A stretch of DNA of 38,730 nucleotides from a virus (taxonomy: Duplodnaviria > Heunggongvirae > Uroviricota > Caudoviricetes). Location of the stretch: IMG/VR virus record IMGVR_UViG_2778261630_000007, one strand, 5' to 3'. This document shows, one piece after another, positions 6,914-25,326 of the stretch (its first letter is position 1; each line of letters starts with the position of its first letter). Made by a program: the position numbers and the translations under genes. Under the pieces are notes generated by a model. The model was given only the letters and a program-made list of their open reading frames with translations. It was not told where the DNA came from and did no database searches.

Positions 6914-7300
6914 TTACGCTCTCCTTAACTGGATTGAGTAAACTGATGCGGAAGGATCTACACTCGCTGTAATTACCTCGTATCGTTGCAACTGCCTTGA
7001 TACAGGATCATAAATCTCAATAATATGGCCGACAGCGGGTTTATCCGTAACCTCGCATACCAGAGCTGTTAATTTAAGGTCACCATGCAAAATATTAATC
7101 CCATCAATTCTGCCCAGCTTATAACGCGTCAACACGCCTCGCCCGGTATAGGTTGCTGTGGATTCGCCGCCAGTTTCCGTCACTGGATTCCAGTTCCGGT
7201 GCGCAACGTAAGAACCAGAAAAATCACTCACGGCGTCTGCTAAATCCTCATCAAAAGCAGCGGCAACCTCTGACTGAATCTCTTCACGAAGCCCCATCAT
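6914..7300 (-). CDS. head-tail adaptor / head closure protein
   Basis: 128-aa ORF in the head-tail joining block, overlapping neighbours by 1 to 4 bp. Confidence 0.55.
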   Translation of the reverse strand: MMGLREEIQSEVAAAFDEDLADAVSDFSGSYVAHRNWNPVTETGGESTATYTGRGVLTRYKLGRIDGINILHGDLKLTALVCEVTDKPAVGHIIEIYDPVSRQLQRYEVITASVDPSASVYSIQLRRA

Positions 7301-7692
7301 CCCCCCCTCACAACCCTGACTTGTGAGCGACTAAGTCCGTACGGTTTCAGCAGTGCTATCGCAAGCTGTAAATCGGGTTCAAGCAATGCAGTGCTGTTTG
7401 CTGGCAATTCAGCAAATGATTTCGATACACTGACCCCGTCAGCCGACACGGCTTTACTGATAACAACGCCAGAATCATTTTTCTGCTGAAACAACTTACC
7501 GACAGAGGCAATTCTGGCTGCATATGCTCCCGCAAGTTTTACCTCTTCCGGAATACGGGATGGGTTAATTTTCAGGCCGAAGCCATTAAGCCAGGCATTA
7601 GCCATTAAAACAGCTTTATTTTTAGCGTTCTCACTCGTCCAGGCGTTCCCAAACGCATTATCAACGTCATCACAGGTCACGTAAGTGATCAT
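7297..7692 (-). CDS. head-tail connector protein (gp6-like)
   Basis: 131-aa ORF downstream of the capsid gene; position and size typical of connector proteins. Confidence 0.55.
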   Translation of the reverse strand: MITYVTCDDVDNAFGNAWTSENAKNKAVLMANAWLNGFGLKINPSRIPEEVKLAGAYAARIASVGKLFQQKNDSGVVISKAVSADGVSVSKSFAELPANSTALLEPDLQLAIALLKPYGLSRSQVRVVRGG

Positions 7693-7695
7693 GTG

Positions 7696-7920
7696 TTACT
7701 CCTGAGTTTTCCAGCCCAGAGCCTTCCAGTTGTCAACTTCATCAGGATGAACATTAGCGATAGTTGGTGCGCCGGGAAACATCTGATAATCGGTCACCAT
7801 AACCACTAACTCAATTTGCGTTTTTTGTGGCTCCTGAATTTGCTCCACATTTTGCTCCACCACTGCATTTTTTTGCGCGGCTTCACGCTGTGCTCTTTGC
7901 TCTTTAGTTAATCCGGCCAT
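7696..7920 (-). CDS. small head-module protein, unknown function
   Basis: 74-aa ORF between the capsid gene and the connector gene; acidic and Gln-rich. Confidence 0.45.
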   Translation of the reverse strand: MAGLTKEQRAQREAAQKNAVVEQNVEQIQEPQKTQIELVVMVTDYQMFPGAPTIANVHPDEVDNWKALGWKTQE

Positions 7921-7931
7921 ATACCCTCCAT

Positions 7932-7952
7932 TAAAAATGGGGCCGAAGCCCC
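7932..7952 (-). terminator. putative intrinsic terminator after the major capsid gene
   Basis: Minus strand GGGGC-TTCG-GCCCC followed by ATTTTTAAT; lies 11 bp downstream of the capsid stop. Confidence 0.45.
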
Positions 7953-7962
7953 GTTTGGATGT

Positions 7963-9102
7963 TTAACCAAGAATCAGACAACCATGTGCCGGTTTCACTG
8001 ACGAAACACCCCATGCCAGTCCAACTTCATAGCGCACCTGGCGATACTGACGATACAGTGCAATCTGGAACGTAATCCCTGAAATCGGGTCCGTAACATT
8101 CATTACATCATCAGCATTATCGCCACCTTCCGGCATTGCCGGAGTACGGGATGCCAGCAGAAACGCGTTGCGATCAAACGCCATATTTGCAGTAAAGGAG
8201 CCAACAACTGTGATTGCAGTATCATCGGCCAGATCCTGACGCAGTCCCGGTGCTGCAAGAGTAATCAGATTGCTGGTCGCTGCTGCCACAACATACTGAT
8301 TAGGATCGCCAGCGAACGTAACAATCTGACCTGCAGAAATACTCCCCGAACCAGTATCAATGGAAATAAGAACATCGCCTTCTTTTTTCTCGCCATTCAC
8401 GAGATAACCAGTTGCAGCAACCTTTGGCGCTCGTTTTACACCTGCCGAACTGTGAATATTGAATCCCTCCAGACGCCCCAACACGCCCTCACGCAGTAGC
8501 TGTTCAGTGCCGGATTCATTCACTTTAAACAATACAGACTGTTTTCCGCGCAAATTAGCAATGGCAGTGGAACCAAGCACCATCTGCAGATCTGTTGTCG
8601 GTGCGCCGTTATCCTCCAGAACCTGACGAGCCAGAGCAGCATCAGAAAGATCATCTTTAACACCAAACGGCGTTGTCCCTGCGGTTCCCACGGCGCGGGA
8701 AGCACCGAAATACAACACACCAAGATCAGCCTCAACCTCGTTTGCAAGGGCGCGAAAAGCCTGCTTGAACTGATCAGCCAGAATGGTGTTGTAAGTCCCT
8801 GAAGGGCCAAGAGCCAGTTGTTCTTCACCATTCCATTTAACCGGCGCCATTTTGGATTTAGTAATTTTTACATCAACAGTGCCAATATTTTGATCACCGG
8901 TATTCGGAGCTGACGGCCCCGGTACGATATCTTCGGTTTTCGCCTCAGGCGCAACTGGCGCGGTTACCGTCTGATCTTTTGCTGCTGCGTCAGCTTTTGC
9001 GTTTTTTGCTACCGCAGGGATAAAACCTACCTGCTCACGGGATACAACATCCAGGGCGGTGTAAATAGTCGGGATCAACCCGGTCAGGGTATTTCCAGCC
9101 AT
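7963..9102 (-). CDS. major capsid protein
   Basis: ORF follows the scaffold gene; ATG at 9102 (MAGNTLTGLIP...) preceded by AAGGAA; the ORF-track start at 9195 is an upstream alternative-start extension. Confidence 0.8.
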   Translation of the reverse strand: MAGNTLTGLIPTIYTALDVVSREQVGFIPAVAKNAKADAAAKDQTVTAPVAPEAKTEDIVPGPSAPNTGDQNIGTVDVKITKSKMAPVKWNGEEQLALGPSGTYNTILADQFKQAFRALANEVEADLGVLYFGASRAVGTAGTTPFGVKDDLSDAALARQVLEDNGAPTTDLQMVLGSTAIANLRGKQSVLFKVNESGTEQLLREGVLGRLEGFNIHSSAGVKRAPKVAATGYLVNGEKKEGDVLISIDTGSGSISAGQIVTFAGDPNQYVVAAATSNLITLAAPGLRQDLADDTAITVVGSFTANMAFDRNAFLLASRTPAMPEGGDNADDVMNVTDPISGITFQIALYRQYRQVRYEVGLAWGVSSVKPAHGCLILG

Positions 9103-9200
9103 AATTAAATATTCCTTAAAAATTTGCGTAATTGTGAATGGATTGAGTAGTGAGCTATCCAGCCCTGACACCAACTCCCATCCGGAAGCTGGCAAATGTA

Positions 9201-9965
9201 TTAATCAACGATTGTGATACCGTCTTTCAGTGCGTTTTGCTTACCTGCAACATCCAGTGCATCAAAAGCAGAGCGTTTCATCGTTTTCTGACCAATATCA
9301 TGCTGTGTCGGACGGGAACCGCCGCCATTGTTGCCACTGGCTTTCAGGATGTAGTCTTTCTGAGGGTAATTTTCGACGAGGAACTCCAGCGCCTCATCAA
9401 ACTGCGCCAGTTCTCCTGGCTTCGCGCGGGAATAAATTTTGTTGCCGGAAGCGTCATAAGCAACGATCTTCCCTTCTTCCACTTTGAATGCCTGTCCGAA
9501 GCGGGCTTGTAATAAATCTGCCGGGATCGCAATTTTATCGGCAATATATTTTGAACCCGCAAAACTACCGCCAATCATAGAATCGTAAAGCTGCTTCTCC
9601 AGCATCTGAGAGCGTTGCTTTTCTTCATCTAATTGCTGCTGAAAATTTTTCGTAATTTCTGCCTTAACCTGGTCAACCTGTCCCGCATCGATCAGCTTTT
9701 TCTGGTCGATTTTTGACAGCATTTCCAGTGCCTCAATCGCCTTCTTCGGGTCTTCGATAGCGGCAAACTTAGCCAGTTTTTCCTCTGCAGCTTCTTTAGC
9801 CAGGCGATGATTTTTTGCCTCGCCATTAAGCTCTGTAATTTTTTTTGTCGCCAGCGGTGCATCGAAGCCGATTTCTTTACCATCGTCGTGCACATAGACT
9901 GGCAGGCCAGCAGTATCAATTTCTGCGTATTGTTTTCCGTTAATCTCGACCGTTTTCAGTTTCAT
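9201..9965 (-). CDS. capsid scaffolding protein
   Basis: Lys/Glu-rich coiled-coil-like protein between the head morphogenesis and capsid genes; likely ATG at 9965 (MKLKTVEINGK...). Confidence 0.65.
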   Translation of the reverse strand: MKLKTVEINGKQYAEIDTAGLPVYVHDDGKEIGFDAPLATKKITELNGEAKNHRLAKEAAEEKLAKFAAIEDPKKAIEALEMLSKIDQKKLIDAGQVDQVKAEITKNFQQQLDEEKQRSQMLEKQLYDSMIGGSFAGSKYIADKIAIPADLLQARFGQAFKVEEGKIVAYDASGNKIYSRAKPGELAQFDEALEFLVENYPQKDYILKASGNNGGGSRPTQHDIGQKTMKRSAFDALDVAGKQNALKDGITIVD

Positions 9966-10069
9966 ATTAGTACCTGGTTTAAGTCTTCTGACAGTTACGC
10001 TGCTCACCATCCGGATCGCAGCAATAAAAAAGGCCACCCGAAGGTAGCCTGTTGTAATAAATGATTTAT

Positions 10070-11185
10070 TTAAATCCCTGCTTTTCTGAATACCTGTGCA
10101 TCACGCTCACGGAGTTGCTTCAGCGTCAGCCATTCGCCTTTATCGGTGTAAAATTCATCTGGCGACATACCACCATCCCGAATCAGCTTTGCCCGGGTTT
10201 CCCCCACAATCTGTTTTTGTCTGGTGTAAGGCTGACGCAAAAACCATTCCCTGTAGGTTGTATCTCCGGCCACCACGCCATCCATGCTGGCCCGCTCAGC
10301 CGGGGAAATATCACGAACATCAATACCCAGTTCCTTCGCTGATTTCAGAATGAACGTTTCCGTTGAGCGGCAGCAGAAATGAATTTTTCCCGGCCCCTGC
10401 AAATAAGGCACGCTGTGACCTACAGGTTTATTATCCAGCGTATATTTGAGGCGATCCCTGATTCGACATTGTGGCGTAGTACGATTATCAAGCGTTGATA
10501 ACCATTGCTTACCCTTAATCAAATCATTATTCGCGCGTGCAAAACTCTCACGAGCAGTAGCAGCAAGATGTCCAACCGCTGTTTTTGCAATGCTGGCCGC
10601 ATTAGCCCGGCTCATCTGCAATGCACCATCCTGAAATCCCTTACTGACATGTCCCCGAATTTTTCTTGCGATCTGCTCATTGGTATCCCCCAGCAAAAAA
10701 CCCTGACGCACCGTATTTGTTATGCGTCTGAGCCGATCCGCCTCAAGATCTGAGGCCCACTCACTGAGCAGTCGTCCCTGGAATGGTCGCGCCATTGCAG
10801 CGGCGTAAAGTGCATCAGAAGAGATACCAACCAGAGGGTGAACATCAGCAACAAAATCAGGTAGCAGAGAATCAAACAGACTTAACTGATAACCAGCCTC
10901 ATAAATTGCCAGCTCGTTCAGCTCTCCGGAGAGACTGGTAAACATACTGTTAATAGCAGCGCGGTTAACCTCTCTGACACTCGCCAGAAGTGACTCCAGG
11001 CGCGTAACGGTAAAACTACCAGGATCGAGGCTGTCCAGTGCTACCAGCAGGCGAGCTGTAAGCTCCGCATCGCTGTCATTCAGTATTTTCACCATTCTGG
11101 CAGCCACACCAGTGCTATAGCGGGATATCCAGACTGCATGAGCAATTGATTCATCACGCAGCCGTTCATTCACGGTTTGCATCAT
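10070..11185 (-). CDS. head morphogenesis protein (Mu gpF / SPP1 gp7 family)
   Basis: 371 aa with the motif ...STLDNRTTPQCRIRD... typical of the Mu F-like minor head protein family; directly follows the portal gene. Confidence 0.75.
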   Translation of the reverse strand: MMQTVNERLRDESIAHAVWISRYSTGVAARMVKILNDSDAELTARLLVALDSLDPGSFTVTRLESLLASVREVNRAAINSMFTSLSGELNELAIYEAGYQLSLFDSLLPDFVADVHPLVGISSDALYAAAMARPFQGRLLSEWASDLEADRLRRITNTVRQGFLLGDTNEQIARKIRGHVSKGFQDGALQMSRANAASIAKTAVGHLAATARESFARANNDLIKGKQWLSTLDNRTTPQCRIRDRLKYTLDNKPVGHSVPYLQGPGKIHFCCRSTETFILKSAKELGIDVRDISPAERASMDGVVAGDTTYREWFLRQPYTRQKQIVGETRAKLIRDGGMSPDEFYTDKGEWLTLKQLRERDAQVFRKAGI

Positions 11186-12572
11186 TGATTTCCATCAGCA
11201 TTACACTCTGATTTTTTAATTCATCGATCACTTCCTCTGGACGGGAATCCTGATCGATAAATTTCAACGCCTGCAACACCCGAACCGCATCAATCTGACG
11301 TATATCACCGCCCTGACGCAATGACTGAACAGCCAGCGCGGAGGATGAGTCAAACACCTGGGCAGATACATCCAGTTCAGTGCGCACATCCACATTGCCA
11401 CCGCAACTCTCTCCGCTCCATTCCGCCATTATCTGGAGAATATTATCGAGGGCATCTTCGAGGGAGTTCGCCATTGTATAAAGCGGCGAGTGTTCCTGCA
11501 TCCGCTCTTCATTAGTCTGATCAACAGATTTGGTGGATGTATTTTCAGCCCGCAGAAGTTTAGCGCCAGCATGACGCATCTGATTTTCCAGCTTCTCAAG
11601 TGATGTTTCGCCAGATTCTATCGCTGCGCCACTATGTTCAACATATTCGAGGCCATTTTTTGTTCTGTCCTCAAAAATCGTAGCGGTGGATGCACCAACC
11701 GTCAGTTCTTCATTCCTGTCCAGCCCGTAGGCCACCAGCAATGGAACGCGGGCAACATGAAGAATATTGTCCTGCTCGCTCTGGCTTTGCCAGTGCTTGA
11801 TATTCAGCAAGCCAAGATTAAGCAATGGCGGTGTACCACGCATAAACCCTGTTTTCTTCGTATACAGTGTTACCAGAGGAATATCATCACGGCTGGTATT
11901 CCATGACTCATGAAGCGTCCAGACAGATTCGCCATTAGTACCTTCGCTGCGTCGATAAATTTCAACTCGACGGGGCATAATATGGCGGATCTGCTCCACC
12001 TTCTTCTGCCCGAAATCATCACCATCAATAATGATGACCTCTTTTATACGCAAATCAGTGAGAACAACTTTCCCTTTTTCAACTTTCGATTTCCATCCAA
12101 TAACCTGGCGTGGATTCAGCATCGTAACGTACGGGCGACCACCGGCCGCGTTTTCATCGGCTTTTGTCCGAATCTCTTTCATATCCGTTCGTGGATAGTC
12201 CACCAGCGCATGTGCCACACCATACTGAAATGCGAGACTGAAAAATTGCTGCGCCCACACATCCAGTCGGCTCCCCTCCATGTCGATATTTTCTGCATAT
12301 TCCCTGATTTTTTCCGGCGTTTCCTCACTCAATACTGTCGGCTCTGCAAATATGCGCCCAATATTTTGTTTGATGCTTTCTTCATACACAGGAAGTAGCG
12401 TAGCCACAGACAGGCGTTTTTTATAAGCGTCTTCATCTTCATTAGGCCATTTGGGGAGATAATTTTCCCCCTGCCTGCGCATTTCAAGCGTACCGCCCAT
12501 CAATGCGTCGTTAATATCCCACGCCTCCAGCATATCGTTATAGTCGAGGTTGGGTGTTGATATATCAGCCAT
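11166..12572 (-). CDS. portal protein
   Basis: 468-aa ORF immediately downstream of the large terminase gene; size and position typical. Confidence 0.8.
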   Translation of the reverse strand: MADISTPNLDYNDMLEAWDINDALMGGTLEMRRQGENYLPKWPNEDEDAYKKRLSVATLLPVYEESIKQNIGRIFAEPTVLSEETPEKIREYAENIDMEGSRLDVWAQQFFSLAFQYGVAHALVDYPRTDMKEIRTKADENAAGGRPYVTMLNPRQVIGWKSKVEKGKVVLTDLRIKEVIIIDGDDFGQKKVEQIRHIMPRRVEIYRRSEGTNGESVWTLHESWNTSRDDIPLVTLYTKKTGFMRGTPPLLNLGLLNIKHWQSQSEQDNILHVARVPLLVAYGLDRNEELTVGASTATIFEDRTKNGLEYVEHSGAAIESGETSLEKLENQMRHAGAKLLRAENTSTKSVDQTNEERMQEHSPLYTMANSLEDALDNILQIMAEWSGESCGGNVDVRTELDVSAQVFDSSSALAVQSLRQGGDIRQIDAVRVLQALKFIDQDSRPEEVIDELKNQSVMLMEINDANRE

Positions 12573-12574
12573 AA

Positions 12575-13885
12575 TTAAATCCGAAGTGATGTGACTCTTC
12601 CGGTCGGTTTGACAATAGGGAATTGCTTAACGATGAAATAACCTCCGGCATCATTCGGGTGATCATTGCCAGATTTTTTATCAGGCTCCCCCTTATCATC
12701 CCAGACCTGTTGCTCCAGAGATTCGGCATATACCGGACAACGCTTCACATTAACTTTATAGCGACGCTCACCATTGGCATTGCAGAACATTGCATTCATT
12801 GAGTTAACGCGATCTTTTACTGGCGGGTTCGAGCTGTTCACCACAACGTTAAAACCAGCCTGCTTAAGCTGGGCTATATCCGTCGTACTTGCGTTACTTG
12901 ATTTTCTGGAATCTCCGGAAGCATCTGGATAAATATAAATCTCCCTCACTTTCCGGTAATCATTCCCGTCATACAGCCAGAAGCGTTCTTTAATGATGCG
13001 GATCATATCCGGCGTATCGTAGGCATTGATGATTTCAGTTACCGCACATGGAAGCCCCAAACGCAGCACATGGACGATCCCCGCCATCTTTCCAACGTTA
13101 AAATCCATCCCAATATAAATCGGCTCCCCTGGCTGCTCCACTTCTTCGCAATTATTCAGTTTCCGGTCAAACTGATGGTAAACAGTACCACTTGTCAGGT
13201 TAGTAAACTGTCCTCGAAGATAGGCTTTAATCAGCTCTGGAGGGTATGATTCAAGAAGCGAAGGAATGTAATCTGCTGGCAGGTTCTTTTCATTATCGAA
13301 AGTAGATGCCTGCACCAGACCATACAGTGAGGCCAGCTCTGTTTTTTCACGCACGGCTTTAACAAACTGCTCGTAGACAAATTTGAATCCTTCCGGCGTG
13401 GTTGTAACGTCAATACCGTTGCGAAGTCCATCAATCTTATAACGCATACGCGCAATTATCTTGCGCCACGCCGTTCTGGCTTTTTCCTTCGGCAAAATGT
13501 CCAGTTCATCCACCAGCGCATTACCAATTTTGAAACCGACGATCGTTTGTGGCTTCTCCATCGATCTGCAGATAGTGGTTCCCCGATACTGGCGTCCGTA
13601 ATAAAAGTGAACCTCTTTATTTCCCTCATTAATTTTTACGTTCAATCCCCAGTCAGCAGCAACTTCTTCCACTGTAGGGTAAAAAATATCGCGAATTTGG
13701 GGATACGTTGGCGCAAAATATCCCTGATTTATACCTGGATGCTCCCAAATCCCCTTGCATATGCCGCCACACCCAACCCATGTTTTGCCCGAGCCAAAAC
13801 CAGCAATATAGGCTTTAAATTTATGGGGCATTGAAAGAAATCGCGCCTGAGGCACATTAAGCGTCGGAGAGATCATCTTCATCAC
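12575..13885 (-). CDS. terminase large subunit
   Basis: 436 aa with an N-terminal Walker A-like FGSGKT motif; followed by the portal gene. Confidence 0.85.
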   Translation of the reverse strand: MMKMISPTLNVPQARFLSMPHKFKAYIAGFGSGKTWVGCGGICKGIWEHPGINQGYFAPTYPQIRDIFYPTVEEVAADWGLNVKINEGNKEVHFYYGRQYRGTTICRSMEKPQTIVGFKIGNALVDELDILPKEKARTAWRKIIARMRYKIDGLRNGIDVTTTPEGFKFVYEQFVKAVREKTELASLYGLVQASTFDNEKNLPADYIPSLLESYPPELIKAYLRGQFTNLTSGTVYHQFDRKLNNCEEVEQPGEPIYIGMDFNVGKMAGIVHVLRLGLPCAVTEIINAYDTPDMIRIIKERFWLYDGNDYRKVREIYIYPDASGDSRKSSNASTTDIAQLKQAGFNVVVNSSNPPVKDRVNSMNAMFCNANGERRYKVNVKRCPVYAESLEQQVWDDKGEPDKKSGNDHPNDAGGYFIVKQFPIVKPTGRVTSLRI

Positions 13886-14951
13886 TCCTTACTCTGGCAT
13901 CAACCACATTAATATTGATCGCCACAGGCTGGGGATGTTCATTATCTTCCACCGTTTCGATCTCTTTGCGCAGCTTCTGGTTTTCCATTCTGCGTCGTTC
14001 AATTTCCAGTTCCTGTAGCCGCTTATCTGCACATAAAGCCCCGCCAGCAGAAAGCAAACGCAACAATTCACGCCGGGCGGCAGCCTTATCCTCCAGCAGG
14101 ATCTCAACACCGAATTTTCCGAGTTTTGCCCCTGCATATAATTGCCGCGCATCCCCATCAAGCAGAGTGGTATCAGCCATATAAAGCTGTCCCGTTCCCT
14201 CACCGCAGCACTTCGGGCAGTCCGGATTGGGTATGGCGTTATCAACAAAGCCGAGGCCTCCATATTCCGGTTCGGGTTTGCCATCTCTGGAAGCCTGCGC
14301 CGCTGCCTTGTCGAATTCTGCTATATCGCGCCACTGGTAGAGATGATTCTCGCCCCAGCAATAACGGCAGTTAACACGGCGAAATTGTGCAAGCTGATTG
14401 GGGTCGGCCAGGACAATGGCCATCAACTGACTCACCAGTAAATCCAGGTCTGCGGTATAGCGTTTCTGGTACTGATTGCGGAAGTAGCTGATAGCGCGAA
14501 AAACCCTGGCATTTCTAAGCATACGACTGGCGTTGCTGTTAGCTGTCGCACCTTGCCCCTCATAACCGGCTAGTCGGTACGCCTCTGTCGGCTTTTTCCC
14601 CTGAGCAACAAGCATCGCAAACTTAGCCTGCTGGTCAGAAATGCCGAATTCATCGGGACAGAACGAAAATTCCTCCGCGTCGCCCTCATTCAGGCCCGCA
14701 TCGAATACTGGCTTTTTTTCCTGAGATTTTTCGTTCCGCTTTTGTGCAGTCTGCGCAGATTTTTTCTGCGCACTTTTTTGCGCAGTTTTGCGCATTTCTG
14801 TCTGCGCATTTTTCGGAGGTTTTTTGATGTAACGACGGGCTGTTGCGTAATTCAGTCCCCTTGCTTCACACCATGCCACCGGAGATATACCGGAGCGGGT
14901 GTATTCAGCAATATACTCCTGCTGCAACGCCCCCCAGTCCGGTCTGCTCAT
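13857..14951 (-). CDS. terminase small subunit
   Basis: 364-aa ORF immediately upstream of the large terminase with 29-bp overlap; N-terminal HTH-like region and Lys/Gln-rich linker. Confidence 0.7.
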   Translation of the reverse strand: MSRPDWGALQQEYIAEYTRSGISPVAWCEARGLNYATARRYIKKPPKNAQTEMRKTAQKSAQKKSAQTAQKRNEKSQEKKPVFDAGLNEGDAEEFSFCPDEFGISDQQAKFAMLVAQGKKPTEAYRLAGYEGQGATANSNASRMLRNARVFRAISYFRNQYQKRYTADLDLLVSQLMAIVLADPNQLAQFRRVNCRYCWGENHLYQWRDIAEFDKAAAQASRDGKPEPEYGGLGFVDNAIPNPDCPKCCGEGTGQLYMADTTLLDGDARQLYAGAKLGKFGVEILLEDKAAARRELLRLLSAGGALCADKRLQELEIERRRMENQKLRKEIETVEDNEHPQPVAININVVDARVRSDEDDLSDA

Positions 14952-14954
14952 CAG

Positions 14955-15206
14955 TTAGTCCTGATTTTTATCCACCCTGAGTAGTTCGCGCAGAGCAAAG
15001 GCATCCCCTTTTCTGGCAAGCTTAAACAATGCCGCTCGTAACTCGGCTTCACCTTTCGCTCTGCCCTTACGGATGGCCGCATAAAAATCTGTCATTGCTT
15101 CCCGATTTTCTTTCAGTCGGTTCAGATCAACATCCAGAACGTCAGCGATTTGTTGTGCAGTCATCCGGCACGCTGCCAGAGACTCGACTTTCGAATACGG
15201 AATCAT
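14955..15206 (-). CDS. hypothetical small protein, possible HTH
   Basis: 83-aa ORF between the glycosyltransferase-like gene and the small terminase; start preceded by GGGTGA. Confidence 0.45.
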   Translation of the reverse strand: MIPYSKVESLAACRMTAQQIADVLDVDLNRLKENREAMTDFYAAIRKGRAKGEAELRAALFKLARKGDAFALRELLRVDKNQD

Positions 15207-16074
15207 TTGTCACCCCTATTGATATGCAGGGTGTCTTCTTCCTGTATTTTTCGTGAAGGATTTTTACTGCAGCGTTGTTCCAGGTGACCTGATGGTGAAT
15301 GCGTTTATGGCTGGCACCCATCAGTGAGATTTTTACGCACGACGGCGCATACATGACGGAGTAAAAACTTTTAACGTAGGTTCCGGAATCCAGATACAGC
15401 TCGGTCATTCCGCCGCTGTTTTTCTGCGTCTGTTTCTGCCCTAACTGGACAGCACCGATCGTCATAAACAATTCACCACAGCGACCGAGATTCGTGTACG
15501 TATTCACATCCTCGTTAATGCGCCCCATGAATGAGAACGGTCGATCAACCGAACAGATAAAGCTGTTCATTGCCTTGCGTTTCACCCACGAAGCATGGCC
15601 GCCATTGTCACCAAGAAAATCCCCGCCCTGCGACATAGCGATGGAAAGAGCAGGTATTGATTCGTAGTACGCCAGCATTTCAGAAAGGAGCGCATCCAGT
15701 TTCCTTATCGGAAAATAGGCCTGGTCATAGTTGCGATCCACCCGAAACTGGAACTCGTGATAATCATCATCGAGCTGAATGAAGTATTTACACCCGACCA
15801 GTTTTGCCAGGTCGAAACAGGCATTACGGGCGTAAAAAATTGAGCGGCGGTCACCGAAATTATCGGCTTCGTCAAAACGACTGGCGATATCGGCTTTGGA
15901 AAACACCAGCACCTGTTCACCAAATTCAGCCATGTACTGATGCCGTGTCTTATCTTCATCATCAACAACGATAAAAATTTTCCCGGTATAGCCAGCACGA
16001 CGCAACGTCCGGTAAGTCAGAACTTTGTCCGGTCGCCCGTGAGTCAGAATAAAGGTGCAAAAATCATCACGCAT
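15142..16074 (-). CDS. GT-A fold glycosyltransferase-like protein (soluble, DxD motifs)
   Basis: ATG at 16074 preceded by GGAGGAGGAGG; N-terminal FCTFILTHGRP strand, KIFIVVDDEDK and IQLDDDYHEF motifs match the GT-A / GT2 pattern; no hydrophobic segments. Start overlaps the ParB-like gene stop by 8 bp. Confidence 0.6.
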   Translation of the reverse strand: MRDDFCTFILTHGRPDKVLTYRTLRRAGYTGKIFIVVDDEDKTRHQYMAEFGEQVLVFSKADIASRFDEADNFGDRRSIFYARNACFDLAKLVGCKYFIQLDDDYHEFQFRVDRNYDQAYFPIRKLDALLSEMLAYYESIPALSIAMSQGGDFLGDNGGHASWVKRKAMNSFICSVDRPFSFMGRINEDVNTYTNLGRCGELFMTIGAVQLGQKQTQKNSGGMTELYLDSGTYVKSFYSVMYAPSCVKISLMGASHKRIHHQVTWNNAAVKILHEKYRKKTPCISIGVTNDSVFESRVSGSVPDDCTTNR

Positions 16075-16858
16075 ATTCCTCCTCCTCCCCACCATGCATG
16101 ATCTCCACCATGCGCTGCGTCATCCGGACAAATCCATTTTCAATAGCCTGCTGATAATCAATGATCACCAGCGCCGACTCCTCGAAAAAACACTGAATTT
16201 CAGCGGGGGCGTGAGCGTAATAGTCCGCAATTCTGCTGAAATTAAACACCGTGTGACGTTCTGCCGCACACAGGAGGAATTTCTCAATATCAGGCTCAAG
16301 GGACGCCGAACGTATCCGGCTGATCAGCTCCTGTGTTTTCGTATCGTCGTACAGTTCACTGATATCCGGTTTACCGCCCGACGGCTCATAAACAGGCGTA
16401 TCAATTTTCGTCGTATACGGCTCCTCCTCATTTCCTGTACCGGGCAAAACATCCGTCAACAGTTCATCAATTTCTGTCGGGCTGAAGCCTGTCAGGGAGA
16501 CATCAAAATCAGCATTGATCAGGTCCGACAGCTCCATCCGTAACAGATCTTCATCCCAGCCAGCATTCATCGGCAGGCGATTATCTGCCAGGCGGTACGC
16601 CTTTTTCTGCTCATCCATCAAACCAGACATAACGATGACCGGAATGGAATCCATTTTGAGCACTTCAGCCGCCATAACGCGACCGTGACCAGCAATAATT
16701 TCGCCCTTTTCATCAATCAGCACCGGATTAGTCCAGCCGAATTGCTTAATGCTTTCTACCAGTTGTGCCACCTGCTCAGGGCTGTGTGTCCTGGCGTTGT
16801 GTGCATACGGAGACAGTTCTTGTAAAGGGCGATAGACGATCTTCAATTTCTTGCTCAT
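16067..16858 (-). CDS. ParB N-terminal domain (ParB/Srx-fold nuclease-like) protein
   Basis: N-terminus YRPLQELSPYAHNARTHSPEQVAQLVESIKQFGWTNPVLIDEKGEIIAGHGRVMAAEVL is a typical ParB-NTD with GHxR motif; followed by an LTGFSPTEIDELL linker as in phage ParB-methyltransferase fusions. May correspond to the full-length form of the K-12 ynaK remnant (uncertain). Confidence 0.7.
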   Translation of the reverse strand: MSKKLKIVYRPLQELSPYAHNARTHSPEQVAQLVESIKQFGWTNPVLIDEKGEIIAGHGRVMAAEVLKMDSIPVIVMSGLMDEQKKAYRLADNRLPMNAGWDEDLLRMELSDLINADFDVSLTGFSPTEIDELLTDVLPGTGNEEEPYTTKIDTPVYEPSGGKPDISELYDDTKTQELISRIRSASLEPDIEKFLLCAAERHTVFNFSRIADYYAHAPAEIQCFFEESALVIIDYQQAIENGFVRMTQRMVEIMHGGEEEEYA

Positions 16859-16875: not shown

Positions 16876-16909
16876 ATAAAACGCACCCCAGCAGCCAGTG
16901 CTACTGGGG
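16876..16909 (-). terminator. putative intrinsic terminator downstream of trkG
   Basis: Minus strand 10-bp stem CCCCAGTAGC / GCTGCTGGGG with 4-nt loop, followed by TGCGTTTTATTC. Confidence 0.5.
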
Positions 16910-16995: not shown

Positions 16996-18453
16996 TTAGG
17001 AGCGCCAAAAAAAACCTGAAAACAATATAATAACAGGATAAATTTCAAGGCGACCAAGAATCATAGCTATGCACATTAAATATTTTGCGATGTCATTAAG
17101 CACTCCGAATGACGATGCAGTAGCCCCAAAACCTAATCCCATATTATTAATACATGCAGCCACTGTTGCAAATGATGTAAGAAAATCATATCCCATACCA
17201 TTTAACACCAGTATAAAAAACACCGTGAAGAGAGTATAAAGAAAAAAGAAACTCCATACAGACCTCATTACACGATCTGTAACTATCTTCCCTCCTACAT
17301 TTACACTCAACAACGCTCTGGGATGAGAAAGCTGGTTTATCTCGTGTTTGCTTTGTTTGAAAAGTATAAGAAATCGAAGTGACTTAATTCCACCACAAGT
17401 TGAACCTATACATCCCCCAAAGAAACTTGACAACAGCAAAAACACTATCGTGTGCGTGGGCCAGTTTGCATAATCCTGCGTAGCTAAACCATTATCAGTG
17501 AGCATGGAGCTGGCAAGAAAAAACGAATGAATAAAACTTCCAGGCAAGTCATACATACCTATATGCCAGACCTGGAAAGAGGTAACAATGATCACCCCTA
17601 AGGCTATTAACAGAAAGAAACGAAGTTCAATATCTCTGATTAAAGGTTTTAACGTTTTCCTGCTAATAACAATATACCAAAGGGTGAAGTTGAAAGCCGA
17701 TAGCAGGGAAAAAGAACCAGCCACCAGCTCAACCAAATAGTTATTAAAATATCCGATACTCTCGCTATGAGTTGAGAAACCACCAAGCGAAACTGTGGAT
17801 ATCCCGTGACAAATAGCATCAAACAAAGGCATTCCTGCAAGTCTATAACAGACAATACAAGCAATACCTAATAAAGAATAAGTTATCCAAAGTGTCCGTG
17901 ACGTATCGGCCAGGCGGGGAGTAAGTTTGTCATCCTTAAATGGCCCTGGCATTTCTGACTGATAAAGCTTTGCACCACCAATACCCAATAATGGCAATAC
18001 AGCAACCGCCAGAACAATAACTCCTAAGCCACCTATAAAATTTAACTGTGACCGATAGTACAAATATGCCCGAGGTAATGAACTAACATCATCAATTACA
18101 GTTGCTCCTGTTGTTGTTATTCCAGAAACCCCTTCAAATAGAGCATCAATAAACGTTAAATTAAGTTCTGAGTCAATCCATAAAGGGAATGCACTAATAA
18201 CAGAAAACAAAATCCAAAACATTACAATTATAATAAACCCATCACGGGTACGTAATTGAATACCAGATTTCTTAGTTGTATACCACGCTCCGCCACCAAT
18301 GCAAAAAAATATAACGAAAGTTATAAAGAAAACGAACAGGCTTTTTTCTTTATAAAACAATGCTACAACCATTGGTGGCAACATTGAAAGACTATAGAGC
18401 CAAACCAGGAACCCACACATATGAGTAACAACTCTTACATGAGATGTATTCAT
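16996..18453 (-). CDS. trkG: TrkG potassium uptake protein (TrkH/TrkG family)
   Basis: Polytopic membrane protein; sequence from MNTSHVRVVTHMCGFLVWLYSLSMLPP... matches E. coli TrkG as recalled; markedly AT-rich; trkG is a known Rac prophage cargo gene. Confidence 0.85.
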   Translation of the reverse strand: MNTSHVRVVTHMCGFLVWLYSLSMLPPMVVALFYKEKSLFVFFITFVIFFCIGGGAWYTTKKSGIQLRTRDGFIIIVMFWILFSVISAFPLWIDSELNLTFIDALFEGVSGITTTGATVIDDVSSLPRAYLYYRSQLNFIGGLGVIVLAVAVLPLLGIGGAKLYQSEMPGPFKDDKLTPRLADTSRTLWITYSLLGIACIVCYRLAGMPLFDAICHGISTVSLGGFSTHSESIGYFNNYLVELVAGSFSLLSAFNFTLWYIVISRKTLKPLIRDIELRFFLLIALGVIIVTSFQVWHIGMYDLPGSFIHSFFLASSMLTDNGLATQDYANWPTHTIVFLLLSSFFGGCIGSTCGGIKSLRFLILFKQSKHEINQLSHPRALLSVNVGGKIVTDRVMRSVWSFFFLYTLFTVFFILVLNGMGYDFLTSFATVAACINNMGLGFGATASSFGVLNDIAKYLMCIAMILGRLEIYPVIILFSGFFWRS

Positions 18454-18590
18454 ATCTAAATATTCTTTCAATTATAACCACCTTGCTGCAACATTATGAT
18501 TATACTGTATAAAATTTAACTCCTCTTAGATCTTACTTCACTGTTCCTTATGAAACAATCATCAAAATGAATCATATTGTAGTTAAGATT

Positions 18591-20542: not shown

Positions 20543-20617
<75 letters not shown>

Positions 20618-20620
20618 ATA

Positions 20621-20696
<76 letters not shown>

Positions 20697-21879: not shown

Positions 21880-22478
21880 TACGCAAACTCCAGTAGCTGC
21901 GCGGCCACATTTTCGACCTGTTCCGGAGAGGAAAATTTACGGAACAGAATCCAGTTCCACAGCACATTCAGTACAGATTTATAAACCTGCTGAAACTCGG
22001 TTTCGTCCATATTCGCAAACGCGATGGATTTCGCCCTGCGCCCACGGCTACCGTCCGGATAAATATGCTCGGTGTAAAATCCGGCCTGAATGGTTACCCA
22101 CTCGCGGAAAGCCTCAAACGACTTTAGCAATGCCGTATCACGGGTTCTGCGTGTCGCAACTGTATTCAGATATTGCTCTGCGGCTTCGCTCAGAGCTGGC
22201 GTATGTTCCCGGCCTACTGATTCACACAGGTAATCAACGAAACCTGACACCAGTTTTCGTTCGCGAGGCGTGATCGCCCCACCGACCGGAGTCCAGTAAT
22301 CGAAACCCAGTTGCAGGAGTTTGAAAAAACGCTTGTGGAATGCGTAGTTACGCACACGCTTAAAGTCTGCGTGTATCCACTCACCTATTTTGATTTGATG
22401 CAGAAAATCGCAACTCTCCGGCGTCGCCGGGAGAAGTAAACCAGAAGAAGTTTGTTTGACCAGTTGTATATGCGCCAT
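21879..22478 (-). CDS. nin-region phage protein of unknown function
   Basis: 199-aa ORF immediately upstream of the ybcO-like gene, stop and start adjacent; possibly DUF1367 family (uncertain). Confidence 0.55.
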   Translation of the reverse strand: MAHIQLVKQTSSGLLLPATPESCDFLHQIKIGEWIHADFKRVRNYAFHKRFFKLLQLGFDYWTPVGGAITPRERKLVSGFVDYLCESVGREHTPALSEAAEQYLNTVATRRTRDTALLKSFEAFREWVTIQAGFYTEHIYPDGSRGRRAKSIAFANMDETEFQQVYKSVLNVLWNWILFRKFSSPEQVENVAAQLLEFA

Positions 22479-22751
22479 TTCTCAATCTCTCGATGGCGCA
22501 GCGCAGCAGATGCCAGTTGTTCAGGCTGACGTATGAAGTATAAATAAACTGGCTCCAGTGTAAAGCCCCCACCTTAATGGAATAAAAACCAAACAACAGA
22601 TTGCTGGGATACAAACAACGCTTATTATTAAAAGCGGTTAAACAAATTAAATTTTAATGTTATGCAAATTTGTCAGATCACCATAATATCTCATTTGAAA
22701 ACCGCTGAAATAACAACCCTATCAGGGTTAATCATATTAAGGTGAGTAAAT

Positions 22752-22838
22752 ATGGAAAACAACAAATCTGCACATTACGTTCCTTTTTTATCTGTAATAC
22801 TTTTTGTTTTATGCTGTGCGTGGGCATTATTTTTATAA
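22752..22838 (+). CDS. possible small hydrophobic peptide, 28 aa
   Basis: ATG at 22752 preceded by AAGGTGAG; MENNKSAHYVPFLSVILFVLCCAWALFL; in AT-rich DNA next to the hok locus. Confidence 0.3.
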   Translation: MENNKSAHYVPFLSVILFVLCCAWALFL

Positions 22839-22946
22839 AAATATTCACAGATAAAATATACCCGCCAAAGCTGGTTAAGTGCGGGTGCGTTGAGGATGCC
22901 TGACACATCAGAGGTGGCGGGAGATTACTCTCCCGCCTGGTCACTC

Positions 22947-23102
22947 TTACTCTCTAGATTCGTAGTCTACGAAGACAGCGACCTCCGTCTGGCCGGTTCG
23001 GATTCGTACCTCGCAGAGGTCTTTCCTCGTTACCAGTGCCGTCACTATGACGGTTAAACAGATGACGATCAGGGCGATTAGCATCGCTTTTTGCTGCTTC
23101 AT
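22947..23102 (-). CDS. hok: Hok/Gef family type I toxin (HokD/RelF-like)
   Basis: MKQQKAMLIALIVICLTVIVTALVTRKDLCEVRIRTGQTEVAVFVDYESRE from ATG at 23102; Hok signature with a single TM segment and CE(V/I)R motif. The ORF-track in-frame upstream extension is mok-like leader or spurious. Confidence 0.85.
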   Translation of the reverse strand: MKQQKAMLIALIVICLTVIVTALVTRKDLCEVRIRTGQTEVAVFVDYESRE

Positions 23103-23313
23103 AGCCTGCTTCTCCTTGCCTTTCGGCACGTAAGAGGCTAACCTACATGTGTTCAGCATGGATTGAGCCTCAGATTAATGTTAAGCGTCTTGCAGGACGC
23201 GTAATGTTAACTGGGGCTTTTCTCTATCTGCCTTTTGGTGTTCATGCCTGAGGCAGATAGCCTCAAGCACCCGCAGCAATTCTACTTAACTCTCCTTTTC
23301 CCGCAAACCGTTT

Positions 23314-23397
23314 TTATCCCCAGCGGCAAATCGAATACACCACCAGCGCCACCGCCATCGCAATTCCTACCGTTGTGAATGCTTCAGGCCAGGTCAT
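23314..23397 (-). CDS. possible 27-aa membrane peptide, translationally coupled
   Basis: ATG at 23397 overlaps the upstream gene stop (ATGA); MTWPEAFTTVGIAMAVALVVYSICRWG. Confidence 0.3.
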   Translation of the reverse strand: MTWPEAFTTVGIAMAVALVVYSICRWG

Positions 23398-23789
23398 CGA
23401 TTCACCTCCTGCTCAATATTTTTAAGGTCATTTTCCGCATACAGTATTGCTGTCCTGGCTGCTCGTAACCGGGCTTTGGCATTTTTCTCTTCACGTTCAA
23501 GTTTTGCCACAGCTTCACGAAGAGCATCCCGCTTTGCATAGAGTGATTTAATCTCAGACACTATGTTTTCACCGTTTCTCGCACGGTCGAGAACAAGCTC
23601 GAACGGATCTAAAGCCAATCCGCACCAGTTACAGGTAATCGTACGATTCACTTCTGAAATTGTTGTACGGATATGCTGACAGCATTTTTGCTCGCCGCTT
23701 TTTCTGTCGGTTATCACAACGTTGAGGAGTCCTTCCTCCTCTGATTTTGGCTGTACCAGGGTGATAACATTGTCGACTTCATTTTTCAT
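23394..23789 (-). CDS. hypothetical protein, Cys-x2-Cys plus coiled-coil tail (paralog of 25327..25716)
   Basis: 131-aa ORF; ...TCNWCGLALDPFELVL... then a Lys/Arg/Glu-rich helix; same architecture as the ORF at 25327..25716. Confidence 0.6.
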   Translation of the reverse strand: MKNEVDNVITLVQPKSEEEGLLNVVITDRKSGEQKCCQHIRTTISEVNRTITCNWCGLALDPFELVLDRARNGENIVSEIKSLYAKRDALREAVAKLEREEKNAKARLRAARTAILYAENDLKNIEQEVNR

Positions 23790-24319
23790 CCGTTCACCTC
23801 CTGCGGTGGTTCCGGTAGCGGCATCCAGTGAGTTGCCTGCTCAATACCATTACCCGGCTTAATCGTTGCTTCTCCTCGCCGGAATGTGCTTCCTGTATAG
23901 CGTGCGGAGCATATTAGCGGTTCAACCAGAGAGCTATCGAAATTCACCGAAATAAGCACGTTCTGGTTCTTTTCAGGCATCCGCTCACTACAGCTTATCC
24001 AACCATCCGGAATTACCGGCGCTGACGGCGCTGCGTAAAGCGGTGTTATTTCTGCCCGAAAGTCACCTATTTCATGCAGTCGCACCCACCGTTCGACTTC
24101 TGCTTTGTCAGAATACAGAGCAGTGAACGTATTATATTCATTGTCAATTTGCGTGAAGGTTGCCTTCCACGCCACTGGCTCTGCTTCCAGTGATGCCAGT
24201 GCGATACGAAACACATTGGCAAGCAGGCTGTCTGAAGATTGGTTATCGTGCGCCGGGTCGCTCAGGAAACCAGTGATGAATGATTTAATCTCCGCGTTTT
24301 CTCTGGTAATAGTGGTCAT
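23786..24319 (-). CDS. DUF551-like phage protein
   Basis: 177 aa with C-terminal ...EQATHWMPLPEPP, the characteristic DUF551 terminus as recalled. Confidence 0.6.
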   Translation of the reverse strand: MTTITRENAEIKSFITGFLSDPAHDNQSSDSLLANVFRIALASLEAEPVAWKATFTQIDNEYNTFTALYSDKAEVERWVRLHEIGDFRAEITPLYAAPSAPVIPDGWISCSERMPEKNQNVLISVNFDSSLVEPLICSARYTGSTFRRGEATIKPGNGIEQATHWMPLPEPPQEVNG

Positions 24320-24525
24320 TTGTTAATCCTCAAAACTTTATGCCCGGGTGCAAAAGCACGCGTTTTGTCTTTGCTTATTCGCCAACCATCCTTGCGCGCC
24401 TCTTTTGCACAGCCAGCCCATGACGTACCGATATACTCACCAAAGTCTGGCGGCTGATATTTGCCATCCGTACACTGGCGGCAATCACAATAGAGATGCA
24501 TGGTGTAACTTGCGGCAATACCCAT
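24316..24525 (-). CDS. hypothetical small Cys-rich protein
   Basis: 69-aa ORF, 4-bp overlaps with both neighbours. Confidence 0.5.
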   Translation of the reverse strand: MGIAASYTMHLYCDCRQCTDGKYQPPDFGEYIGTSWAGCAKEARKDGWRISKDKTRAFAPGHKVLRINK

Positions 24526-25233: not shown

Positions 25234-25326
25234 TTCACTACTGCCCTTTCGGGTGGCCTCCTGCTGTTCTGAGGGTGCAGAAATCCCTCCGGTTAAGGAT
25301 TAAATTTTTAACAGTGCTAAATTTAA

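Follow-up and report, generated by a model that had tools for sequence, protein, structure and literature searches.

The analyzed window, a 38,730-nucleotide stretch of a tailed-phage genome (Caudoviricetes, IMG/VR record IMGVR_UViG_2778261630_000007), carries two adjacent genes on the minus strand, both of them late genes, in a Rac-like prophage of E. coli. The upstream gene (16067..16858) encodes a protein of 263 amino acids, here called the partner, and the downstream gene (15142..16074) encodes a predicted TAGT-family GT-A glycosyltransferase (GT) of 310 amino acids. Both are intact open reading frames (ORFs), matched by PF02195 and phrog_620 in the case of the partner and by PF20691 and phrog_842 in the case of the GT. 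Within the partner gene, 16454..16858 encodes a ParB_N domain of the CTPase fold together with a helix-helix linker (residues 1-135) and 16070..16438 encodes an acidic C-terminal domain (C-domain, residues 141-263), both on the minus strand. As stated in the preliminary description of this DNA, the two minus-strand genes overlap by 8 bp (16067..16074, ATGCGTGA), the end of the partner gene reading GAATATGCGTGA and containing the ATG of the GT gene. The strong ribosome-binding site noticed before the second gene is GGAGGAGGAGG, which is located within the 3' end of the partner gene (16078..16088, minus strand) at a spacing of 3 nt from the GT ATG, and the GT gene is translationally coupled to the partner gene. 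A longer GT ORF starting at 16095 was dropped; as all homologues begin with MRDDFC... and PGAP gives a gene of 933 bp, the true start is at 16074.

The potassium transporter gene trkG (16996..18471, minus strand, ORF and PGAP) lies between the lysis genes and the pair, and the terminator thought to separate trkG from the pair corresponds to a hairpin (16886..16909, minus strand) with a 10-bp stem including 7 G-C pairs and a subsequent T-tract (TGCGTTTTAT), placed 28 nt upstream of the partner start codon. On the other side of the pair, a small ORF of 83 amino acids (14955..15206; 69 amino acids in the PGAP version) reaches into the GT gene at its 3' end and resembles the helix-turn-helix part of the terminase small subunit (phrog_309, E=8e-23); ORFs of 79-85 amino acids also follow the GT in other Enterobacterales loci. 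The genes for the terminase small subunit (13857..14951; PF03592, phrog_51) and large subunit (12575..13885; PGAP annotation of a near-identical prophage) come next, and these three ORFs are again on the minus strand. The pair thus heads the packaging operon behind a terminator, and for this reason it should be read in the prophage only by Q-antiterminated late transcription; a promoter scan gave sites that were no more common than expected by chance. The pair had been regarded as a moron in a hotspot. Instead, phages from many phyla have it as a conserved unit that opens the packaging operon, and the moron is trkG.

The 310-amino acid protein matched the Pfam family TAGT (PF20691) with 122.4 bits (cut-off 27.5, E=3e-35) over the whole 205-position profile and matched phrog_842 with E=5e-103. 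The motifs quoted earlier, FILTHGRP (residues 8-15), VVDDEDK (36-42) and QLDDDYHEF (100-108), are present, as are the GHxR and linker motifs of the partner, and most of them are invariant across homologues. Invariance was also found for the DxD motif (D102-D103-D104) and for D38, D41, R83-N84, N187-E188-D189, T216-Q217, G221-G222 and H260-H261. When the GT model was compared with the PDB by Foldseek, 52 matches were obtained at E<=0.001, the top nine being glycosyltransferases and the remaining ones GT-A-fold glycosyltransferases or related nucleotidyltransferases, and in the BFVD the best matches were TAGT proteins with TM values of up to 0.73. The model, which was based on a 20-sequence alignment, is of low confidence after residue 217, and the GT profile gave only chance-level matches against PDB sequences. 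The earlier assignment to the GT-A fold is supported by these results, and the protein is, as judged from its sequence, a soluble TAGT-family GT-A enzyme with an intact DxD metal/nucleotide-sugar site. The TAGT assignment, like that of the ParB domain described below, is far beyond chance.

The TAGT family comprises T2/T6 and TET-associated DNA glycosyltransferases, its characterized members being enzymes that glycosylate DNA, and includes the T2/T6 enzyme acting on glucosyl-5hmC DNA (PMC13216743, PMC13390438). The T2/T6 β-glucosyl-HMC-α-glucosyltransferase and the T4-like TAGTs belong to the same Pfam family and have the same GT-A fold as the GT, and the GT domain (residues 3-270) can be aligned over its full length with the TAGT of Aeromonas phage 65, the GR, ARN, DD, GRxNED, TQ..GG and HH motifs being common to both. 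However, these TAGTs are only about 23% identical to the GT. In T-even phages a dCMP hydroxymethylase and an α-GT generate glucosyl-5hmC, onto which a second glucose is then transferred; the genes for these enzymes are absent from the window. Also, T4-like TAGTs, unlike the GT studied here, have no C-domain partner. From the low identity, the absence of the T-even pathway genes and the lack of such a partner in T4-like enzymes, it follows that the RefSeq/PHROG product name "beta-glucosyl-HMC-alpha-glucosyltransferase" is unjustified for this GT subfamily. The TAGT of Aeromonas phage 65 has an extension at its N-terminus, which was considered as a fused C-domain and was rejected as such. Some GT copies carry the name "GREB1-related protein" in NCBI and UniRef.

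The partner is composed, in this order, of a ParB/Srx N-terminal NTP-binding domain, a helical LTGF linker, a disordered segment and the acidic C-terminal domain. Its AlphaFold model has a mean pLDDT of 80.6, with values of 86-97 across most of residues 1-130. The match to PF02195 is marginal (28.3 bits at a cut-off of 26.3, E=1.8e-6), phrog_620 was matched with E=3e-89, and Foldseek detected the ParB-CDP structure 6sdk (E=1.5e-7) as well as ParB-CTP, MxParB, PadC, Noc, KorB and Srx, in agreement with the ParB N-terminal nuclease/NTPase-like domain proposed at the outset. The GHGR motif is located at residues 57-60 and the linker LTGFSPTEIDELL at residues 122-134. Candidate NTP-binding residues are N21, R23, S36, G57-H58-G59-R60 and D92-N93, and a comparison of 44 N-domains of many phyla revealed conservation of N21 in all 44, of R23 in 36, of S36 in 38, of R60 in 42 and of N93 in 43. 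ParB_N carries the nucleotide-binding residue set (N/Q-x-R, Ser, the Arg of GxxR, Asn), and binding of NTP is predicted. The catalytic Glu of the GERR box, which serves CTP hydrolysis, is missing and His58 is found in its place; among the 44 N-domains this position is occupied by H in 24 cases, by N in 19 and by E in one. A canonical partition ParB of a ParABS system was rejected, as there is no HTH, no C-terminal dimerization Pfam domain and no parA in the prophage; the score against TIGR00180 was 37.6 at a cut-off of 58.45, with a match covering residues 11-94 only.

Residues 1-140 of the partner are homologous to the N-termini of phage ParB-DNA methyltransferase fusions, with 40-55% identity in tblastn. 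This relationship is reflected in the matches to phrog_498 (E=6e-50, residues 3-141) and to PADLOC MTase_II (E=6e-38, residues 10-144), and the homology ends at about residue 141-144. In accordance with the initial reading of the sequence, no SAM-dependent methyltransferase Pfam domain is present in the partner, residues 141-263 forming a different, unannotated domain. The suggestion that a glycosyltransferase has replaced the methyltransferase is a fair description of the pair, but within the polypeptide the replacement is the acidic C-domain, and catalysis would be provided in trans by the separate GT. Phage and prophage fusions of ParB with PF01555 and PF13489 have been surveyed (PMC12704722). 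The closest functional precedent concerns the ParB-like protein ParB176, shown in 2026 to be needed for the phage thymine dioxygenase 5mYOX176 on double-stranded DNA (PMC13229309). Both ParB176 and the partner possess an NTP-binding domain with the same N-x-R...S...R motif pattern, a short helical segment, a disordered linker and a C-terminal domain, both have no obvious DNA-binding domain, and both are encoded beside a DNA-modifying enzyme, which is putative in the case of the GT. The enzyme of ParB176 is a dioxygenase whereas that of the partner is a glycosyltransferase.

For the C-domain (residues ~141-263) no Pfam family was found, and its profile revealed no relative among PDB sequences, where only chance-level matches were obtained; the Foldseek search with the partner model was dominated by ParB_N. 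The C-domain has a four-helix core (residues 173-227), and its family comprises about 1,000 clusters at 50% identity (1188 counted) with a median pI of 4.55, mostly fused to ParB_N and sometimes stand-alone. It constitutes a new domain family without a Pfam entry. The term "undescribed" used for the pair in the preliminary description holds only in part, as TAGT is a curated family and links between ParB and modification have already been published. In all 59 evaluable genome loci the C-domain and the GT are encoded on one strand with the C-domain upstream, and in 58 of them the two are directly adjacent and usually overlapping, the exception (L064) having a second TAGT gene in between; gaps between partner and GT are -7 to -40 nt in most loci. 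Similarly, the GT lies downstream of the C-domain in 80 of 80 viral loci, directly adjacent in 75 and after one gene in 5, and the same order is found in Vibrio phage pv27 and in HHTV-2, a virus of archaea. Several lineages do without ParB_N, and the constant partner of the GT is the acidic C-domain, not ParB_N. A mirror-tree analysis gave r=0.69 for C-domain and GT and r=0.50 for ParB_N and GT, with 0.14 and 0.02, respectively, for distant pairs, values that fall short of proof that the proteins interact physically. The two proteins differ in charge, the GT subfamily being basic (median pI 8.7, with pI 9.7 for the C-terminal segment 217-288 of the GT) and the partner acidic (pI ~4.6).

A motif Y148-[T/S]149-x-K-x-x-x-P155-x-Y157 was detected in the C-domain, in a segment predicted to be disordered. 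Among 51 partners Y148 and Y157 are present in all and T/S149 and P155 in 50 each. Such near-invariant residues might be expected if the GT modified a protein, either its own partner at Tyr148-Thr/Ser149...Tyr157, in a way resembling glycogenin or GREB1, or a DNA-associated protein of phage or host. Glycogenin and the peptide-modifying GT-A enzymes SunS, ThuS and ColGalT1 are among the structural neighbors of the GT in the PDB. GREB1 and the kinetoplastid base-J glucosyltransferase (JGT) belong to the same GT superfamily; while JGT needs 5hmU made by JBP, GREB1 acts on protein and O-GlcNAcylates ERα on Thr/Ser (PMC7968844), and both are large proteins of eukaryotes, neither having a ParB-type partner. 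A protein acceptor would also agree with the absence of a hydroxylated DNA base in the window and in phages c5 and phi jlb1. However, the motif may equally serve as an interface element, this ParB_N module is known from phages as a fusion to DNA methyltransferases, the basic C-terminal segment of the GT suits a polyanionic substrate, and the neighboring genes are terminase and replication genes of many unrelated types, with no conserved target evident except the partner. Protein glycosylation is regarded as rather unlikely; if the module does act on protein, it would represent a novel system by which phages glycosylate proteins, linked to the packaging operon.

Carriers of the pair include phages from many bacterial phyla, one haloarchaeal virus, Vibrio phages of 191 kb and 889 of 5426 complete E. 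coli genomes, or about 1 in 6. GT sequences are 39-59% identical across phyla and across a domain boundary, which argues for a universal substrate. The commonest downstream neighbors in other loci are terminase families, notably those of the large subunit, as in phage c5, where the order is cos-ParB-GT-terS-terL. Stand-alone forms of the C-domain adjoin genes for DNA polymerase A, primase-helicase or exonuclease, and at some loci nucleotide-sugar genes or a second TAGT gene are inserted. A universal substrate and a broad host range would also be compatible with glycosylation of RNA (at the 2'-OH, or of tRNA) or of a nucleotide-derived immune signal as a counter-defense, with ParB_N as nucleotide sensor: ribose hydroxyls provide the acceptor that is missing from DNA, ParB-fold domains bind CTP, ATP or GTP, and fusions to RNA domains occur in some lineages (PMC12704722). 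This appears improbable, as the TAGT family offers no precedent for it, the sensor ParB_N would be dispensable in several lineages, and the conserved place at the packaging operon or by DNA polymerase or primase points to DNA; in addition, PADLOC assigned the GT to no defense system.

The abundance in E. coli genomes might suggest that the pair acts in superinfection exclusion, with lysogens over-glycosylating or marking the incoming DNA of 5hmC or 5hmU phages, or otherwise defending the host. Such an idea has been raised (bioRxiv 10.1101/2023.12.21.572611), and the 5hmC and glucosyl-5hmC acceptors of T-even phages would suit a TAGT (PMC13216743). However, lysogens are not expected to express late-operon genes that a terminator precedes, in the dairy phage c5, which does not integrate, the pair forms the first operon following cos, and it is also present in the large Vibrio phages and in hosts without known hydroxymethyl-pyrimidine phages. 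With the lack of a PADLOC match for the GT, this makes superinfection exclusion very unlikely. Even less credence is given to modification of a cell-surface glycan or to a decaying, non-functional remnant. Although prophage glycosyltransferases commonly alter the O-antigen, a seroconversion enzyme was rejected because neither the partner nor the GT has a membrane-spanning segment or a signal sequence, and no flippase or Gtr-like partner is present. Truncated copies in K-12, Shigella and many other strains could indicate decay, but both ORFs in the window are intact and keep all family-invariant residues, and the association with ParB_N and terminase is maintained in different phyla.

Glycosylation of phage DNA is faced with the question of the acceptor. 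No TET/JBP enzyme, thymidylate-synthase-like hydroxymethylase or DNA methyltransferase was found in the window, in phage c5 or in phage phi jlb1, and none within two genes' distance on each side at about 50 loci. Characterized TAGT-type enzymes transfer sugar onto the hydroxyl of 5hmC, 5hmU or an attached glucose. To our knowledge, all glycosylation of phage DNA starts from 5-hydroxymethyl- or 5-hydroxy-pyrimidines, and a hydroxyl of this kind is absent from canonical DNA. Without an enzyme forming hydroxymethyl-pyrimidines, the acceptor must differ from phage-made 5hmC or 5hmU, and the lack of both an acceptor-making enzyme and a hydroxyl in canonical DNA counts against glycosylation of DNA. 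The same applies to the partner, which is acidic throughout and in which no recognizable DNA-binding domain was found by Pfam, and to GREB1 as a protein O-GlcNAc transferase in the same superfamily (PMC7968844). The search of the literature revealed no reports of unusual DNA in any phage carrying the pair and nothing functional on the pair, on ynaK or on HHTV-2, earlier description being judged from papers that cite Iyer et al. (2013).

Several lines of evidence nevertheless point to DNA: the TAGT family, GT-A fold and catalytic motifs shared with the TAGTs of T4-like phages, the ParB-CDP/CTP fold with NTP motifs and an N-module in common with phage DNA methyltransferases, and the strict synteny of the module with its terminase or replication neighbors, its nucleotide-sugar genes and the opposite pI of its two proteins. 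Precedents are ParB176 and modification linked to packaging (PMC13229309, PMC8256090); ParB-directed DNA modification during packaging is a hypothesis of Iyer (2013), as cited in PMC8256090. ParB-like and terminase genes have also been noted near TET/5mYOX-associated glycosyltransferases of metaviromes, which are likewise post-replicative phage DNA glycosyltransferases of GT-A fold (PMC8256090; 10.1101/2023.12.21.572611). The TET-associated enzymes act on 5hmC generated by an adjacent methyltransferase and TET, whereas the pair has neither, and those studies do not describe a strict unit of two genes in which the enzyme has its own partner domain, as found here. Taken together, the pair is most likely a late-expressed two-protein phage module in which the partner-assisted GT would glycosylate phage DNA, a reading to which we give a probability of about one half; that the GT needs its partner is suggested only by synteny. 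The acidic C-domain would bind the GT, which is basic, with the basic segment at the C-terminus of the GT as the probable contact site, and ParB_N as an NTP-dependent switch or clamp would engage or activate the GT on double-stranded DNA, comparable to ParB176 and 5mYOX176. With an NDP-sugar of the host as donor, the GT would then glycosylate phage DNA after its replication, either ahead of packaging or in the course of it, and the glycosylated packaged DNA might be shielded from nucleases in the next host.

More tentatively, the module might install sugar directly on DNA without a phage-made hydroxymethyl-pyrimidine, although this is doubtful; the sugar may go to a canonical base at its exocyclic amine, to a mark made by the host, or to the backbone or the ends of the DNA. 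If true, direct glycosylation would add a novel class to DNA modification chemistry, one that is timed to packaging. Any action on DNA would imply that ordinary temperate coliphages, as well as dairy phages and viruses of archaea, contain an unrecognized modification or acceptor, with a bearing on evasion of restriction and defense, on sequencing artifacts and on enzyme tools. With either substrate, DNA or protein, the new principle that ParB-fold proteins regulate DNA-modifying enzymes would be extended to a very common and strongly conserved subfamily of a DNA-glycosyltransferase family that has no hydroxymethyl pathway and has its own obligatory partner domain.

The module can be tested directly in E. 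coli because K-12 lacks the pair through a natural deletion. The K-12 genes ynaK and ydaY had both been taken as remnants of this locus. This is correct for ynaK, which represents the first ~84 codons of the partner gene, whereas ydaY is a homologue of a tail-region gene located at about 4640..4996 in the window; a deletion of 11.6 kb (window 4997..16604) set ydaY next to ynaK. A further hit (H24), examined as a methyltransferase allele at the same locus, turned out to be another deleted Rac prophage.

The module consists of two intact minus-strand ORFs, one for the 263-aa ParB_N protein (partner; 16067..16858) and one for the 310-aa glycosyltransferase-like protein (GT; 15142..16074). They overlap by 8 bp (16067..16074), with the partner gene ending in ...GAA TAT GCG TGA and the ATG of the GT gene lying inside that string. 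The ribosome site of the GT gene, GGAGGAGGAGG, is found at 16078..16088 on the minus strand, and the two genes are translationally coupled. A longer GT ORF starting at 16095 was rejected, because all homologues start with MRDDFC and the PGAP coding sequence measures 933 bp. At its C-terminus the E. coli GT is extended by a tail of about 22 aa (window 15142..15206) that is missing in homologues from other genera and that overlaps, in a different reading frame, the start of an 83-aa terS-like ORF. Inspection of ORFs and sequence bears out the two genes, overlap and ribosome site of the preliminary description, and all motifs quoted there were found in the partner and GT sequences. No hydrophobic segment of the membrane-spanning type was detected in either sequence, in keeping with the proposal of a soluble GT.

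Comparison of the GT with Pfam PF20691 (TET-associated glycosyltransferase, TAGT) gave a match over the full profile with 122 bits (cut-off 27.5), and phrog_842 was matched with E=5e-103. Confidence in the AlphaFold model is high over residues 1-150 and low beyond residue 217; the significant Foldseek matches of the model in the PDB are GT-A-fold enzymes, the best nine being glycosyltransferases, followed by nucleotidyltransferases of this fold such as ADP-glucose pyrophosphorylases, and among viral models TAGT proteins are the best matches. The GT-A signatures suspected earlier are thus confirmed. Invariant in GT homologues are D102-D103-D104 (DxD motif), D38/D41, N187-E188-D189 and H260-H261, and the TAGT of the T4-like Aeromonas phage 65, which aligns over GT residues 3-270, retains these motifs. 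Judged by its sequence, the GT is a TAGT family member with intact predicted catalytic motifs. One member of the family is the T2/T6 enzyme, by which glucosyl-5hmC DNA receives its second glucose (PMC13216743, PMC13390438).

The N-terminal domain of the partner belongs to the ParB/Srx group (PF02195; phrog_620, E=3e-89), as had been claimed, and in Foldseek the AlphaFold model of the partner superposes on ParB-CDP/CTP structures as well as on PadC, Noc, KorB and sulfiredoxin. Across phyla the NTP-binding residues are kept, but His or Asn takes the position of the catalytic Glu. The partner differs from partition ParB proteins in that TIGR00180 scores below its cut-off and that HTH, CTD and ParA are lacking. 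Over its residues 3-144 it shares homology with phage ParB-methyltransferase fusions, namely with their N-termini (phrog_498, PADLOC MTase_II), and in tblastn many phage 'DNA methylase' genes are 40-55% identical to the N-region. However, this homology stops at about residue 141-144 and, as already noted in the preliminary description, the partner has no methyltransferase domain. Instead, residues ~141-263 form a C-terminal domain (C-domain) for which no Pfam family was obtained in a Pfam search and no relative among PDB sequences in a sequence search. AlphaFold predicts a confident four-helix core after a disordered stretch, and the family comprises about 1,000-1,200 clusters at 50% identity.

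To our knowledge the constant association of the GT with this C-domain is described here for the first time. Loci with GT relatives of 39-59% identity, one genome per species, were collected from Enterobacterales, Bacteroidota, Firmicutes, Veillonella, Desulfovibrionaceae, Acidobacteriota, Saccharibacteria and others (62 loci). Wherever upstream DNA was present (59/59), the GT is preceded on its own strand by a gene whose product matches partner residues 141-263 with its final ~120 residues. In 58 cases this gene comes directly before the GT, usually overlapping it; at the remaining locus (L064) a second TAGT gene intervenes. The N-terminal part of the upstream gene is ParB_N in most loci, whereas in several lineages ParB_N is missing and the C-domain is free-standing (~135 aa). 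In the reverse direction, a C-domain profile found at least 589 loci in IMG/VR, and all 80 that were kept have a GT downstream, 75 adjacent and 5 after one inserted gene. C-domain and GT strictly co-occur, and the constant partner of the GT is the C-terminal domain. The pair is also present in the archaeal virus HHTV-2 (gp21 and gp22), in 191-kb Vibrio phages with a free-standing C-domain, and in Lactobacillus phages c5 and phi jlb1. A survey of ParB-fold fusions (PMC12704722) does not mention glycosyltransferases, ParB-like neighbours receive only a passing mention in a preprint on viral DNA glycosyltransferases, and a 2026 paper on T4 glucosyltransferases reports solitary TAGT homologues in 288 of 753 phage genomes, suggesting that they are possible novel transferases.

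On the minus strand of the window the order is Q-like antiterminator, tRNA-Gly(UCC) and tRNA-Thr(UGU) (20543..20696), holin, lysozyme and Rz, trkG, a terminator-like hairpin (16886..16909), partner, GT, the 83-aa terS-like HTH ORF, terS and terL. The pair therefore does lie between lysis cassette and terminase, right after the terminator-bounded trkG. Its description as a moron is rejected: trkG is a moron, whereas the pair is the conserved head of the packaging operon, because in other loci terminase families are met more often than any others just downstream of the GT, in c5 the pair comes first after cos, and in phi jlb1 it lies between late activator and terS. Free-standing C-domain variants, that of the Vibrio phage included, adjoin DNA polymerase A, primase-helicase or 5'-3' exonuclease, so that the module stands in a DNA-metabolism context.

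Some loci contain additional genes, among them sugar-nucleotide dehydrogenase/epimerase genes, of the kind to be expected near an active NDP-sugar transferase. In five IMG/VR contigs a two-domain histidine-phosphatase and cytidylyltransferase-like gene is inserted between partner and GT (L125 2942-3895, L133 6326-7321, L138 5676-6662, L142 1419-2387, L144 5208-6176), suggesting a dedicated nucleotide-activated donor. Second TAGT paralogues adjoin the module at three loci (L064 5178-6011; L029 2970-3845; L057 571-2004, which also has two C-domain genes) and hint at a larger glycan built stepwise.

All characterised GT relatives known to us use 5hmC, 5hmU or glucose already attached to them. Yet no TET/JBP dioxygenase, thymidylate-synthase-like hydroxymethylase or DNA methyltransferase was found in the window prophage, in the complete 31.8-kb c5 genome (where all unassigned ORFs are below 210 aa), in phi jlb1, or among two genes on each side at about 50 loci. 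An acceptor of the 5hmC/5hmU type is therefore not made by these phages: the GT agrees with TAGTs in sequence and fold but not in context, and the RefSeq/PHROGs product name 'beta-glucosyl-HMC-alpha-glucosyltransferase' is not justified for its subfamily. Given the missing acceptor pathway, the outcome would be new in either case, be it a DNA modification or a phage system of protein glycosylation, and the module is common, strongly conserved and easily tested.

The best-supported reading, to which we assign a probability of about one half, is that the GT, an NDP-sugar-dependent enzyme, would act on phage DNA late in infection together with its C-domain and ParB_N partner. The C-domain is strongly acidic (median pI 4.55) and the GT basic (median 8.7; 9.7 for window GT residues 217-288), charges that are complementary, and the C-domain would bind the GT, probably via the basic C-terminal part of the latter. 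ParB_N may then engage the GT on duplex DNA, or activate it there, by working as a nucleotide-dependent switch or clamp. Such ParB assistance is plausible because the phage thymine dioxygenase 5mYOX176 requires a ParB-like protein, ParB176, with the same overall layout as the window partner, to act on dsDNA (PMC13229309), and because ParB proteins have been proposed, in a suggestion cited in PMC8256090, to direct modification enzymes to DNA during packaging. We infer the DNA acceptor, the kind of sugar, the dependence on the partner and a protection from nucleases.

The C-domain also bears an invariant motif, Y-[T/S]-x-K-x-x-x-P-x-Y (window 16388..16417, partner residues 148-157; Y148 and Y157 in 51/51 partners, T/S149 and P155 in 50/51), in the AlphaFold-disordered segment, which might either belong to an interface or itself be glycosylated. 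In the latter case protein rather than DNA might be the acceptor, and another member of the superfamily, GREB1, does transfer O-GlcNAc to protein (PMC7968844); we consider this main rival rather improbable. RNA or nucleotide substrates, superinfection exclusion and seroconversion are less likely explanations. The earlier interpretation as a nucleic acid modification module thus had largely the right direction, with several details corrected and its function being a prediction.

Of 5426 complete E. coli genomes, 889 contain the full pair at ≥90% nucleotide identity, and so do 10 deposited records of coliphages or Salmonella phages. Compared with the window, Rac of K-12 (strain DH1, L150) has an 11.6-kb deletion (window 4997..16604) that removes the C-terminal part of the partner, the GT, terminase genes, and head and tail-tube genes. 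Of the two genes regarded as remnants of the pair, ynaK is indeed the 5' stump of the partner gene (first ~84 codons), whereas ydaY is a tail-region gene (window ~4640..4996) and no remnant of the GT. Seemingly because of the truncated K-12 YnaK, PGAP calls the intact partner a partial 258-bp 'ynaK' pseudogene in two other genomes (L001 20926-21717 and L002 4926-5717), where the equivalent of window 16067..16858 is an uninterrupted ORF; in one of them it adds a separate 504-bp 'transcriptional regulator'. In Shigella flexneri (L003 5102-6008) the partner is split into ORFs of 129 and 168 aa, probably by an inactivating frameshift, and the GT is intact. The closely related prophage of L001 has, within the nin region, a gene resembling epoxyqueuosine reductase QueH (29132-29797) that is not in the window, whose counterpart region (22478..26034) has different genes. 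Its recE is a single 2.6-kb gene, and the exodeoxyribonuclease VIII (recE) region of the window holds two ORFs (32553..33284 and 33432..35675), of which that of 243 aa matches Exonuc_VIII and that of 747 aa has a PDDEXK domain.
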